This document shows positions 10,314-57,218 of a stretch of 64,000 nt of DNA, piece by piece. The stretch comes from Escherichia coli 042 (GTDB lineage: Bacteria; Pseudomonadota; Gammaproteobacteria; Enterobacterales; Enterobacteriaceae). Where the stretch lies: assembly GCF_000027125.1 (NCBI RefSeq), contig NC_017626.1; one strand, given 5' to 3'. The translations under genes and the position numbers were made by a program. Below the pieces are notes generated by a model, which saw only the letters and a program-made list of their open reading frames with translations, did no database searches and was not told where the DNA came from. How positions within the stretch are numbered: the first letter of the stretch is position 1; every line of letters begins with the position of its first letter.

Positions 10314-11423
<1,110 letters not shown>

Positions 11424-11476
11424 TCAAATCAGCTTGCGCGCTATTTTACGCGCCAACGCGCAAGGAAACTTGATTT

Positions 11477-12403
11477 TTAACTGCGTGGGGTGCCGAAAAT
11501 TTCTAAAAATCCGCTGATTTCCGGCCTGCGCTGGGTAAACAAGGTCACAATATCTTCTACCGCTTTGCCGCTGCCAAATTTGCGCCATGCCAGACTCAAT
11601 GGCGAAGGAGGGCGCATCGTTGGGATTACCCGGCTGACCAGTTGTTGATTATCGATCATTGACTGGCAAAGTGATTTTGGCAAAAAACCAATGCCAACGC
11701 CCGCCAGATGGGCGGCGATTTTCGTTTCCATATCAGGAACAATAATCTCTTTTTGCCCTGGCAATCGCCAGGCGACGCGTTTGGTTAAGGTGCGGGCGCT
11801 GTCTTCAATATTGACCGCCGGAAAGCGACGCAACTGCGCTTCTGTTAGCGGCTCTTCAACGTTCGCCAGCGGATGATCCGCCGCCATGACAAAGCGCCAT
11901 TGCACCGATCCTAAGGGATCAAGACTAAAGGTATTTGCCAGCGCCTCGGTTCCCGTGACGCCGATAGCCAGTGAAAAACCTTCGTACAATAGCGAGTCCC
12001 AGACGCCCATATAGATTTGCCGGGAGATGTGGAACTGGGTAAAGGGGTAACGTTCATTCAGCCACGCCAGCAGCTGGGCGACGGCCTGGGGATTGTAGAG
12101 CAGGTTGTTGATGACAATATTCACCTGGCGTTCCACGCCATCATTCACCTGTTGCAGCTCGCTGGGCATACTTTCCAGCCAGCTCAGCCAGTCTCTGGCC
12201 TGAGAAAGTAGATGCTCGCCAGCCGCTGTCAACGTCACGCTGCGAGTCGTGCGGAAAAACAGCGCCACTCCGGTATTCTCTTCCAGAAGTTTAATGCGAT
12301 AACTGATCGTCGCCGTGGTTTTACATAATCGTTCTGCCGCTTTTGAAAAACTTCCTGTTTCAGCAACCGCAATGAAAGTCCGCAAGGTTTCTGGATCGAA
12401 CAT
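11477..12403 (-). CDS. allS: LysR-family activator of allD, AllS
   Basis: 308 aa; LysR HTH at the N-terminus; divergent from allA. Confidence 0.9.
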
Positions 12404-12510
12404 CTTCAGGTATCCCCTTTTAAATCCGCAAGTTGCGTGATTTTCTTATCCTCTGATTTATCAGTATTTTTACATGATAACCCTGTTCAATTTGTGGACT
12501 AAATCTAGTT

Positions 12511-12527
12511 TTGGAAAAATATTCCAA
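12511..12527. promoter_or_regulatory. AllR-type operator palindrome TTGGAAAAATATTCCAA in the allS-allA intergenic region
   Basis: Near-perfect inverted repeat TTGGAAAA/TTCCAA; same half-sites as the site upstream of gcl. Confidence 0.6.
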
Positions 12528-12632
12528 CTTTTGTGTTGATGTTGTTCTCTTAAGGTTTTAGATTGCCTGTTATTGAAACCAAGCTGACCGGTCGGCGCTG
12601 GTTGAACGGAATTATGTTACAAGGACAAAAAG

Positions 12633-13115
12633 ATGAAACTTCAGGTATTACCGTTAAGTCAGGAAGCCTTTAGTGCTTATGGCGATGTAATCGAAACGCA
12701 GCAACGGGATTTTTTCCATATTAACAATGGACTGGTAGAGCGTTACCACGATTTGGCGCTGGTTGAGATTCTTGATCAAGACCGTACGCTCATCAGCATT
12801 AACCGCGCGCAACCGGCGAATCTGCCGCTGATCATTCACGAACTCGAACGTCATCCGCTGGGCACTCAGGCCTTTATCCCGATGAAAGGTGAAGTGTTTG
12901 TGGTGGTCGTGGCGTTAGGTGACGACAAACCAGACCTGTCAACGCTGCGGGCGTTTATCACCAACGGTGAACAGGGGGTGAATTACCATCGTAACGTCTG
13001 GCATCACCCACTTTTCGCCTGGCAGCGCGTCACCGATTTTCTGACCATCGATCGCGGCGGCAGTGACAACTGTGATGTTGAAAGTATTCCTGAACAGGAA
13101 CTCTGTTTTGCGTGA
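12633..13115 (+). CDS. allA: ureidoglycolate lyase AllA
   Basis: 160 aa; position between allS and allR. Confidence 0.9.
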
Positions 13116-13192
13116 CGCCTGCAACCGACTTGCATAAGATAAACTAATTGTTCATTGTTTATGCTCACTTGTAGGTCGGAGTTAACGTAGGT

Positions 13193-14008
13193 ATGACGGA
13201 AGTTAGACGGCGCGGCAGGCCAGGACAGGCGGAGCCTGTGGCACAGAAGGGCGCACAGGCGTTAGAGCGGGGAATTGCGATTCTGCAATATCTGGAAAAA
13301 AGTGGGGGGAGTTCGTCGGTTAGCGATATTTCTCTCAATCTGGATTTGCCGCTCTCCACGACCTTTCGCTTGCTGAAGGTTTTACAGGCAGCGGATTTTG
13401 TCTACCAGGACAGTCAGTTAGGCTGGTGGCATATAGGATTAGGTGTTTTTAACGTCGGTGCGGCGTACATCCATAACCGCGATGTCCTCTCCGTCGCCGG
13501 GCCGTTTATGCGCCGCCTGATGTTACTTTCCGGCGAAACGGTCAATGTCGCGATTCGTAACGGCAATGAAGCAGTATTAATTGGTCAGTTAGAGTGTAAA
13601 TCGATGGTCAGGATGTGTGCGCCGCTGGGCAGTCGTCTGCCGCTGCATGCTTCCGGCGCGGGCAAGGCGCTGCTTTATCCGCTGGCGGAAGAGGAGTTGA
13701 TGAGCATCATTCTGCAAACCGGTTTGCAGCAGTTTACGCCAACGACGCTTGTGGATATGCCCACCTTGCTGAAGGACCTGGAACAAGCGAGTGAACTGGG
13801 CTATACCGTAGATAAAGAAGAGCATGTTGTAGGCCTGAATTGCATAGCTTCAGCAATTTACGATGATGTAGGTAGTGTTGTTGCCGCTATCTCCATCTCC
13901 GGGCCTTCATCAAGACTGACAGAAGATCGTTTTGTCAGTCAGGGTGAGCTGGTCAGAGACACCGCCCGCGATATCAGCACGGCGTTGGGACTGAAAGCAC
14001 ATCCATAG
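13193..14008 (+). CDS. allR: IclR-family repressor of the allantoin regulon, AllR
   Basis: 271 aa; IclR-type HTH at the N-terminus and effector domain. Confidence 0.9.
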
Positions 14009-14020
14009 TGTCTGTCGCAT

Positions 14021-14046
14021 CCCGCTCTGCGGAGCGGGTTTTTTTG
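14021..14046 (+). terminator. intrinsic terminator after allR
   Basis: GC stem cccgctc-tgcg-gagcggg followed by a T-run. Confidence 0.7.
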
Positions 14047-14060
14047 ACAAAATTTGAAAG

Positions 14061-14077
14061 TTGGAAAATTTTTCCAA
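14061..14077. promoter_or_regulatory. AllR-type operator palindrome TTGGAAAATTTTTCCAA upstream of gcl
   Basis: Perfect inverted repeat ~20 bp upstream of the gcl ATG. Confidence 0.65.
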
Positions 14078-14097
14078 TTAATAGAGGTAGGAATAAA

Positions 14098-15879
14098 ATG
14101 GCAAAAATGAGAGCCGTTGACGCGGCAATGTATGTGCTGGAGAAAGAAGGTATCACCACCGCCTTCGGCGTTCCGGGAGCTGCAATCAATCCGTTCTACT
14201 CAGCGATGCGTAAGCACGGCGGTATTCGTCACATTCTGGCGCGTCATGTGGAAGGTGCTTCGCACATGGCGGAAGGTTATACCCGCGCAACGGCAGGGAA
14301 TATCGGCGTATGTCTGGGGACTTCCGGTCCTGCGGGCACGGACATGATCACCGCGCTCTATTCCGCTTCTGCTGATTCCATTCCTATTCTGTGTATTACC
14401 GGCCAGGCTCCGCGCGCCCGTCTGCATAAAGAAGATTTCCAGGCCGTTGATATTGAAGCAATTGCTAAACCGGTCAGCAAAATGGCGGTTACAGTTCGTG
14501 AAGCGGCGCTGGTGCCTCGTGTGCTGCAACAGGCATTTCACCTGATGCGTTCTGGTCGTCCGGGTCCGGTACTGGTGGATTTACCGTTCGACGTACAGGT
14601 TGCGGAAATCGAGTTTGATCCTGACATGTACGAACCGCTGCCGGTCTACAAACCTGCTGCCAGCCGTATGCAGATCGAAAAAGCTGTAGAAATGTTAATT
14701 CAGGCCGAACGTCCGGTGATTGTTGCCGGGGGCGGGGTAATCAATGCTGACGCAGCTGCACTGCTACAACAGTTTGCTGAACTGACCAGCGTTCCGGTGA
14801 TCCCAACGCTGATGGGCTGGGGCTGTATCCCGGATGACCACGAACTGATGGCCGGGATGGTGGGTCTGCAAACCGCGCATCGTTACGGTAACGCAACGCT
14901 ACTGGCGTCCGACATGGTGTTTGGTATCGGTAACCGTTTTGCGAACCGTCATACCGGTTCGGTAGAGAAATACACCGAAGGGCGCAAAATCGTTCATATC
15001 GATATTGAGCCGACGCAAATTGGCCGCGTGCTGTGTCCGGATCTCGGCATTGTCTCTGATGCTAAAGCGGCGCTGACACTGCTGGTTGAAGTGGCGCAGG
15101 AGATGCAAAAAGCAGGTCGTCTGCCGTGTCGTAAAGAGTGGGTCGCCGACTGCCAGCAGCGCAAACGCACTTTGCTGCGTAAAACTCACTTCGACAATGT
15201 GCCGGTGAAACCGCAGCGCGTGTATGAAGAGATGAACAAAGCCTTTGGTCGCGATGTTTGTTATGTCACCACCATTGGTCTGTCACAAATCGCTGCGGCA
15301 CAAATGCTGCATGTCTTTAAAGACCGCCACTGGATCAACTGTGGGCAGGCTGGTCCGTTAGGCTGGACGATTCCGGCGGCGCTGGGCGTGTGTGCCGCTG
15401 ATCCAGAGCGCAATGTGGTGGCGATTTCCGGTGACTTCGACTTCCAGTTCCTGATTGAAGAATTAGCCGTTGGCGCACAGTTCAACATTCCGTACATCCA
15501 TGTACTGGTCAATAACGCCTATCTGGGGCTGATTCGCCAGTCGCAGCGCGCGTTTGATATGGATTACTGCGTACAGCTCGCGTTCGAAAATATTAACTCC
15601 AGTGAAGTGAACGGTTACGGCGTCGACCACGTAAAAGTAGCGGAAGGTTTAGGTTGTAAAGCGATTCGCGTTTTCAAACCGGAAGATATAGCACCAGCCT
15701 TTGAACAGGCGAAAGCCTTAATGGCGCAATATCGGGTACCGGTAGTCGTGGAAGTTATTCTCGAGCGTGTGACCAATATTTCGATGGGCAGCGAACTGGA
15801 TAACGTCATGGAATTTGAAGATATCGCCGATAACGCAGTGGATGCACCGACTGAAACCTGCTTCATGCACTATGAATAA
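14098..15879 (+). CDS. gcl: glyoxylate carboligase (TPP-dependent)
   Basis: Start at [13 protein letters not shown] gives 593 aa; the ORF track's 14008 start would run through the allR terminator and AllR operator. Confidence 0.9.
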
Positions 15880-26448: not shown

Positions 26449-26764
26449 CTGTCTTCCTTTTTAACGACGGTGTGAAGCATGACTGCAATTAACATACAGG
26501 GAAAATATCTGGATTATGTGATCCAGACAGGCAAAAAAATATAGTTAGAATTTATTTGATAATCCGCTCGCTTTTAACCTGGTTTTTAAAACAACCACGC
26601 TTATTAAAAAATAACACGTAATAGCCTGGCGGTTATTTGAATTCTTTTGTTAATAATCCCTATGTGATATTCATCACCTTATTTACTCGTTGTCATCGAT
26701 ACCGTAATCGCCACATTAACACTGCTCGTGCAATTGCCATGGGTGCAATTTTTAAGGAGTTGTT

Positions 26765-54550: not shown

Positions 54551-55841
54551 CAGGGAAAGATTACGAAAGCCCGCTCCCAGCAAGGACTGACGCCAGATAG
54601 TTTCTGTCCATGGCTGCTTTTCGCATCTTACGTCTTAACCCTGCCTTGAATACCTTATCATTCGTCAAAATATTAATAGCGATGTGCCGTATCCCTGAAA
54701 ATAATTCTGCGGCGTTTCCTCTTCTTATTTTGCAGTCGTCTTCATTCATTACCACGTCCAGACGCCAGTGCAGCTTATTCTCCACGTGCCAGCGGTTTCG
54801 GATTGCTGTGGCGAACTTCTCTGCGGTTAAATCAGCACAACTGATATAATATCTGACCGTCATTTCTGGCTCTTTCTTTTGTTCTGCTATTATTGACCGA
54901 AAGGAGACTGCCACGCATAATTTCTTCAGACCTTTCCATTCAAACGTGAAATCAATAAGTTCATCAGGGACATCGCAAACAATGTGAAGACGGATTTCTT
55001 CTCTGCCGTGACTCTTTTCACTAATTGCGTAACTGTCATGCTCTGGATTATTTAATTCTTTCAGTGGGAATTTTTCCTCAAAGGCTTTATTAAGCCGCCC
55101 CTGATTTCCTTTTACAGCGAATAAATAATCACCGCCCTGTTTTTGTATCTTCTCTGCAATATCTTTCTGGCAACCCATCGCATCAGTTGTGATGATTTTT
55201 CCTTTAATATCCAGCATGTTAAGAAGTTCAGGGATAGCTGTAATCTCATTTGATTTCTCATCCGTCCTGATCTGTCCGATGACCAGACTGTGCATTGTTG
55301 AGAACGCACTAATGACATGAATCGCTCCCTTGCGGCGACTCTTGTCATAAGAATGCCGGAGTGTTTTTCCATCAATTGCGATGACGTCTTTATCATCTGA
55401 AGAATGGCAGTCACGCATCCAGTTAATAAAGCACTCGTGAAATTTTGCAGGACTGATACAGGATACAACTCTGGCAATAGTATCGTGAACAGGAATACCA
55501 TTATCAAAATCACCATATTGCTTCAAAAAATCGAGATGTGTTTCCCCAAAATCCTCTATATCTTCCCAGCCTTCTGCACCCGAAATAACGGCACAAATAG
55601 TCAACAGTAGAATATCCGATAATTTATGTTCCACTTTCCAGGCTTGTCTGTAATCGGGGATAATAGAAATATGTTCCATCAATTTTTTAAGTTCCATTTT
55701 GTTCTCCTTAATTATGTAAGGAGTATTTGATCATGTATAAGCAATAAAAAACAGCTTTAGGTAATGAGGAATATCTCAATTTGTAAACATAAAATGCGAA
55801 TTATTTAGTACAAAAAGTGTACTTCTGATGATCTTTCCCTG
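54551..55841 (-). mobile_element. H-repeat / ISAs1-family insertion sequence, copy 1 (apparently intact)
   Basis: ~1.29 kb bounded by inverted repeats cagggaaagat (54551-54561) and atctttccctg (55831-55841); contains one long transposase ORF. Confidence 0.8.
54561..55697 (-). CDS. H-repeat-associated (ISAs1-family) transposase, 378 aa
   Basis: 378-aa ORF of the size and character of E. coli Rhs-associated H-repeat proteins; a second disrupted copy lies at 56.7-58.6 kb. Confidence 0.8.
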
Positions 55842-56526: not shown

Positions 56527-56704
56527 TTACCCCGTTAATACATCAATTCCTAAATATTTGAAAATTTCCTGACAGTTTCTACAGTTCGGAAAAGCACTTC
56601 CATCACCAGTATGAACTGTAGCCATTTCCAAATCATGCAACGATGAATTATCTTTGAGAGCTTTATTCACCGCATCTATTTCAGCACAATTATTAACAGC
56701 CCAA
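56527..56704 (-). pseudogene. truncated C-terminal toxin domain with nucleotide deaminase-like motifs
   Basis: Native ~59 codons after the IS boundary: ...NNCAEIDAVNKAL...(33 aa)...AFPNCRNCQEIF..., i.e. a [C/H]AE helix plus CxxC pair with deaminase-fold spacing; the 5' part is replaced by the H-repeat. Confidence 0.5.
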
Positions 56705-57218
56705 GGCAAGATTACGAAAGCCCGCACCCCGCAAGGACTGCCGCCAGGTAGTTTCTGTCCATGGCTGCTTTTCGCATCTTACGTCTTAACCCTGCCTTGA
56801 ATACCTTATCATTCGTTAAAATATTAATAGCGATGTGCCGTATCCCTGAAAATAATTCTGCGGCGTTTCCTCTTCTTATTTTGCAGTCGTCTTCATTCAT
56901 TACCACGTCCAGACGCCAGTGCAGCTTATTCTCCACGTGCCAGTGGTTTCGGATTGCTGTGGCGAACTTCTCTGCGGTTAAATCAGCAGAACTGATATAA
57001 TATCTGACCGTCATTTCTGGCTCTTTCTTTTGTTCTGCTATTATTGACCGAAAGGAGACTGCCACGCATAATTTCTTCAGACCTTTCCATTCAAACGTGA
57101 AATCAATAAGTTCATCAGGGACATCGCAAACAATGTGAAGACGGATTTCTTCTCTGCCGTGACTCTTTTCACTCATTGCGTAACTGTTATGCTCTGGATT
57201 ATTGGTAATGACTCCAAC

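Follow-up and report, generated by a model that had tools for sequence, protein, structure and literature searches.

Two 17-bp palindromes flanking allA and allR are very probably the AllR operators of an Escherichia coli allantoin cluster

The window, by which we mean the whole 64-kb stretch of DNA that was analyzed, derives from the E. coli chromosome. Several RefSeq E. coli genomes match its interval 11400–14200 at 100% identity, and this interval was found in 5,404 of 5,426 complete E. coli genomes. The genes allS, allA, allR and gcl lie in this part of the window, and all four (4/4) are full-length matches to their own NCBIfam equivalog models. The AllR protein matched the equivalog NF007548 over residues 1–271 of 271, with a score of 616 bits (cut-off, 406). 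gcl is the first gene of the gcl-hyi-glxR-allW-allB-ybbY-glxK operon. A spacer of 229 bp separates allS from allA and one of 89 bp separates allR from gcl, and each spacer contains one 17-bp palindrome:

11477–12403, minus strand: allS, LysR-type activator of allD/allF (NCBIfam NF007501 AllS, 643 bits; PMC12535856)
12511–12527, strand not assigned: very probable AllR operator 1 (site 1), TTGGAAAAATATTCCAA, between the divergent allS and allA
12633–13115, plus strand: allA, ureidoglycolate lyase (NCBIfam NF002948)
13193–14008, plus strand: allR, IclR-family repressor, 271 aa, intact (RefSeq annotation)
14061–14077, strand not assigned: very probable AllR operator 2 (site 2), TTGGAAAATTTTTCCAA, 20 nt before the gcl ATG
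14098–15879, plus strand: gcl, glyoxylate carboligase, 593 aa, followed by hyi and glxR

Direct reading of the sequence gives ttggaaaaatattccaa at 12511–12527 and ttggaaaatttttccaa at 14061–14077, exactly the positions that the first-pass annotation had assigned to a shared AllR-type palindrome. The form common to both sites is TTGGAAAA-N3-TTCCAA, which is equivalent to TTGGAA-N5-TTCCAA. Site 1 is a 6+5+6 palindrome, at distances of 107 and 105 nt from the allS start and the allA ATG, respectively, and site 2 is a perfect 8+1+8 palindrome. Each palindrome consists of two TTGGAA half-sites whose centers are 11 bp, or about one helical turn, apart. Thus, the geometry fits a dimer on one face of the DNA, and we infer from it that both helix-turn-helix domains of a single AllR dimer would contact each site from the same side.

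To place these matches against background, both strands of the 64-kb window were searched and compared with dinucleotide shuffles. The pattern TTGGAA-N5-TTCCAA has 2 exact matches against 0.02 expected, about 100 times the chance expectation, and none of 100 shuffles (0/100) contained two or more exact matches. No third site with two or fewer mismatches was found in the 64-kb window. We also built a weight matrix of 23 columns from 31 unique sites, all of them taken from 20 orthologous loci outside Escherichia, and this matrix supplied the scan that had been called for: site 1 scored 31.6 bits and site 2 scored 34.6 bits, with the next best match in the window at 8.0 bits. In 1000 windows simulated with a first-order Markov model, the mean maximum was 8.1 bits and the highest score was 24.4 bits, with none reaching 30 bits. 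The only weak matches outside the operators, at 55660 (8.0 bits) and 58588 (5.1 bits), fall within repeated transposase copies and were rejected as AllR sites. One copy is a DDE transposase ORF of 378 aa at 54561–55697 on the minus strand (Pfam DDE_Tnp_1_assoc and DDE_Tnp_1); a second, apparently fragmented copy lies about 2–3 kb away at ~56700–58630, and the 300-nt repeats are 97% identical. The matrix found no site upstream of allR and none in the allD-fdrA(allF) spacer (26449–26764; best score −1.4). The earlier wording that the palindrome occurs in both allantoin control regions is therefore right about the two sites and loose as a general statement, since the allR promoter and the allD-allF spacer carry none.

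An AllR protein scan, with one genome per species, yielded 20 non-Escherichia loci that share the allS / allA-allR-gcl-hyi order. These come from Superficieibacter, Klebsiella, Raoultella, Citrobacter, Buttiauxella, Izhakiella, Atlantibacter and Providencia, with AllR identity ranging from 90% down to 66% (Providencia). Every one of these syntenic loci (20/20) has one palindrome per spacer at one or fewer mismatches, the gcl-side copy lying 12–27 nt before the gcl ATG, and no additional palindrome at that threshold was found elsewhere in any of the 20 loci. When the spacers of the 20 species were aligned with MAFFT, the best-conserved 17 columns of the allS-allA spacer were exactly 12511–12527 (identity 0.965 vs a spacer mean of 0.537), and those of the allR-gcl spacer were exactly 14061–14077 (0.938 vs 0.633). 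The five central bases of the palindrome show A/T variation only, and the outer T/A of TTGGAA...TTCCAA is invariant in the 20 species. Within E. coli, 5,426 genomes were surveyed with 61-nt megablast queries, of which the A/T-rich gcl query matched 3,281; the most divergent matches were the ones checked, and these variants retain both palindromes while their flanking bases differ. The cross-species footprint is of modest added value: from Escherichia to Providencia the palindrome is invariant and is the top-conserved element of each spacer.

Both sites agree with what has been published for AllR. The E. coli AllR motif, KTTGGAAWAWTWTTCCAAC, is given by Suvorova and Gelfand 2021 in their Table 1 and attributed to Rintoul 2002 (PMC8222616). 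Site 1 fits this motif at 19/19 positions and site 2 at 18/19. Additionally, a 37-mer designated the 'AllR recognition site', AAATCTAGTTTTGGAAAAATATTCCAACTTTTGTATT, has been quoted from Rintoul 2002 (PMC13300388), and it is centered exactly on site 1:

12501–12537, strand not assigned: 37-mer AllR recognition stretch, made up of 10 nt, the palindrome and 10 nt, with one flanking SNP

AllR has been stated to bind the allS-allA control region and the gcl promoter, with glyoxylate lowering the binding (PMC12535856, PMC11323563, in statements that cite Walker 2006 and Rintoul 2002). FLAG-tagged AllR was enriched upstream of allA by ChIP-qPCR in K-12 and in one ETEC strain (PMC3459970). A K-12 Pgcl-lux fragment, corresponding to approximately 14010–14091 of the window, remained at the basal level, and the authors of that work ascribe this to repression by AllR (PMC13300388). 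For allD-allF, no AllR site was predicted and deletion of allR left allF'-lacZ unchanged (PMC12535856), and the lack of a matrix site in the allD-fdrA(allF) spacer agrees with that reported absence. The proposal that AllR represses both transcription units is thus supported by the two motif fits, by the 37-mer and by the literature. The comparison with published AllR sites that had been suggested as a check places the Rintoul 2002 37-mer on site 1, and, as far as the secondary literature shows, no footprint falls elsewhere in these regions. The position of the gcl footprint would be that of site 2, judging from the motif together with the statements in the secondary literature.

Taken with the statistics and the conservation, these data leave us with little doubt that the two 17-bp palindromes are operators of AllR, the repressor encoded between them. 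These operators of the allantoin regulon of E. coli have already been published, and the finding is a known one. Its value is limited to annotation: it anchors two AllR-controlled promoters, indicates that the repressor-operator pair is intact in this strain and fits the accepted gcl start.

The K-12 AllR operators occupy the same genes and positions and have the same palindrome arms as those of the window. Site 1 is identical to K-12 MG1655 NC_000913.3 532329–532345. Site 2 equals K-12 NC_000913.3 533879–533895 except at the central base, which is T in the window and A in K-12. With this single exchange, site 2 of the window reads exactly as the reverse complement of its K-12 counterpart, a difference that is neutral for a symmetric dimer as judged from the sequence. 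K-12 also differs at the flanking positions 12535 (G in the window, A in K-12) and 14079, and in the allR stop codon, which is TAG in the window and TAA in K-12.

Since AllR has a paralogue in IclR, a member of the same IclR family that is likewise responsive to glyoxylate, we considered whether the palindromes could also, or instead, be operators of IclR, which would put the allantoin genes under IclR or joint control. The IclR boxes of the aceBAK and iclR promoters have the TGGAA-N5-TTCCA core, the 11-bp half-site spacing and the A/T-rich center in common with the AllR sites. Against the IclR consensus TGGAAATNATTTCCA (PMC8222616, Table 1), site 1 matches at 11/14 positions and site 2 at 12/14, and AllR itself scores 244 bits with the NCBIfam IclR model, below the cut-off of that model. 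However, it is the arms that match; the mismatches sit in the central bases, which are the ones separating the two motifs, and the invariant outer T/A is an extra conserved feature of the AllR motif only. IclR targets the glyoxylate shunt whereas AllR targets the allantoin/glyoxylate carboligase pathway, and both sites lie within the allantoin cluster, not at the aceBAK or iclR promoters. In the 20 non-Escherichia loci the palindromes are always linked to allR. Finally, the literature credits AllR with binding and repression, and we found no report of IclR at these promoters. Control by IclR is accordingly very unlikely in our estimate.

Inverted repeats could also form hairpins in the leader RNAs of gcl, allA or allS and affect transcript stability or translation, instead of binding a protein as DNA. 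The 27-nt segments do fold, with −4.4 kcal/mol for the plus strand of site 1 and −7.1 kcal/mol for site 2 (z = −2.4), and site 2 is just 20 nt ahead of the gcl ATG. Yet the stems are weak and A/U-rich, z is only −1.2 for site 1, and, given the promoters proposed below, site 1 would be untranscribed and site 2 mostly upstream of the start site. Variation across the 20 species points the same way: compensatory double changes are absent, the arms are invariant in sequence, and two of the four single-arm changes (TTAGAA in Atlantibacter and ATGGAA in Providencia) break pairing without compensation. We regard a role as leader hairpins as highly improbable. The probability that the palindromes are functionless chance occurrences is smaller still and close to negligible. 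The A+T-rich intergenic DNA abounds in short palindromes (AATATT, ATTAAT and TTTAAA, for example), but the two exact matches against 0.02 expected, the 0/1000 simulations at 30 bits or more and the unchanged placement of both sites in 20 species with diverging flanks all speak against chance. AllR operators remain the reading that we follow below.

The sequence around the operators suggests how AllR could act at each promoter. The candidate promoter elements and the neighboring terminator are as follows:

12466–12474, minus strand: putative allS extended −10, TGtAAAAAT, with TG and AAAAAT conserved in 20 species and the base between them variable
12536–12564, plus strand: putative allA promoter, TTGATG (12536–12541), 17 nt, TAGATT (12559–12564)
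14021–14045, plus strand: allR intrinsic terminator, stem CCCGCTC/GAGCGGG (14021–14038) and T run, equal to the 3' end of the sRNA AllZ
14044–14072, plus strand: putative gcl core promoter, −35 TTGACA (14044–14049), 17 nt, weak −10 AATTTT (14067–14072) inside the operator

The putative gcl promoter would place the start site near 14079. Its −35-like hexamer is abutted by the T run of the allR terminator; the GACA of this hexamer is not conserved in the 20-species alignment, and the distance from the T run to the operator is fixed in all species. The operator is the sole conserved element in the stretch that runs from the allR terminator to the ribosome-binding site GAGGTA (14085–14090). Because the operator occupies the space that follows the −35-like hexamer and precedes the ribosome-binding site, RNA polymerase should be kept out when AllR is bound. 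Repression of gcl is thus likely to occur by polymerase occlusion, with the operator falling in the core promoter on both of the promoter candidates that we considered. The other candidate, TTGAAA (14054–14059) with ATTAAT (14077–14082), is less likely to be the gcl promoter, as it is without the −11 A and would yield a leader of 8–9 nt without a ribosome-binding site. A consensus promoter scan made a sole call, TTTCCA-17-TAAAAT at 14071–14099 overlapping the gcl ATG, and left the putative gcl, allA and allS promoters uncalled; the called element was rejected as a gcl promoter since it is not conserved and would initiate transcription within gcl.

On the allA side, the putative start near 12571 would put the center of operator 1 at about −52. 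The −35 TTG and the T, A, A, T and T of the −10 are conserved in this promoter, which has 8/12 consensus matches and is below the scan threshold. For allS, a start near 12459 would put the operator center at about −60. Operator 1 therefore appears to lie upstream of both putative core promoters. Divergent promoters with a single shared operator form a general class, and one palindrome serves allS and allA likewise; in that class, however, the operator overlaps the core promoter, whereas here it would be upstream of both −35 regions, an unusual position for a simple steric repressor. Repression of allS and allA might instead proceed through wider protection, over the 37-bp stretch, that reaches the allA −35, through blocked upstream contacts of the polymerase, or through a distortion of the DNA induced by an AllR tetramer. 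This mechanism is the least certain step of our account.

Because allR is intact in the window, AllR is expected to repress allS, allA and the gcl operon in this strain. Without glyoxylate, AllR would sit on both sites, keeping allS and allA off from site 1 and the gcl operon off from site 2. Glyoxylate, according to the literature, frees AllR, and derepressed AllS would then activate allD/allF, which are themselves without an AllR site.

AllR is reported to be tetrameric in the literature on the IclR family. There is one dimer-sized palindrome per control region, and the centers of the two operators are 1,550 bp apart. One AllR tetramer might in principle bridge both operators, forming a loop that encloses allA and allR and coupling repression of allS/allA to that of gcl. 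We consider such a bridge unlikely. The distance between the operators ranges from 1,541 to 1,636 bp among species with no conserved helical phase, a variability that neither favors nor disfavors a long loop.

The mechanical gcl ORF begins at a GTG at 14008 and encodes 623 aa, yet the real gcl start is the ATG at 14098. RefSeq places the start at 14098, the NCBIfam glyoxylate carboligase profiles align from residue 1–2 of the protein starting there, and the solved E. coli Gcl chains start at the methionine encoded at 14098. Additionally, all orthologues (20/20) begin MA(K/R)M(R/K)AVDAA, and 17 of the 20 have an in-frame stop 6–57 nt upstream. A 30-codon N-terminal extension would span both the operator and the allR terminator, and the in-frame stops in other genera speak against its translation. 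The first-pass annotation had invoked the operator in favor of the shorter start; the start itself stands on the RefSeq, profile, structural and orthologue data, to which the operator adds weak support. The upstream in-frame start of the long ORF is GTG in the window and ATG, in a TAATG overlap, in K-12, as a consequence of the allR stop codon being TAG here and TAA in K-12.

Several other elements are present in the two spacers. The allR terminator hairpin is retained in the 20 species, and its stem sequences differ in Buttiauxella, Atlantibacter and Providencia; thus, the structure is conserved and not the sequence. The sRNA AllZ (b4831; annotated by RefSeq in K-12 at NC_000913.3 533629–533863), which comes from the 3' part of allR, corresponds to 13811–14045 on the plus strand of the window and ends at this terminator, 16 nt before operator 2. 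AllZ has been verified by northern blot, with an independent promoter proposed and grcA listed as an interactor (PMC8175672). A RutR site has been reported upstream of the gcl operon (PMC10163214). When searched with the RutR box TTGACCANNTGGTCAA at three or fewer mismatches, no match was found near allR or gcl, and the match count was no higher than chance.

In the allS-allA spacer, a strongly conserved TGTGG-N6-TCTAG block at 12493–12508 lies immediately to the left of operator 1 and outside the 37-mer AllR site; nearly all of the 20 species have the TGTGG unchanged. The block loosely resembles a CRP site (TGTGA-N6-TCACA); its center would be near −41.5 of the putative allS start, and a further regulator of allS might bind there. 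The second-best conserved block of this spacer, TGATTTATcAGTATTTTTaCA at 12454–12476 (0.81 identity), reads on the minus strand as the putative allS extended −10, and an invariant TGATTT follows just downstream of that element.

Far from the allantoin genes, three tandem ORFs of 336–346 aa are found on the minus strand (59269–60279, 60679–61719 and 61831–62871), two of which share a length of 346 aa; two of the three were tested, and neither had a Pfam match at E ≤ 1e-5. Around the all cluster the window is identical to NZ_CP018957.1. Base-for-base collinearity with that genome is lost beyond ~30,000, with 14,420 mismatches in a direct overlay, so that the two differ in their distal genes, through either an insertion/deletion or an IS-associated difference.
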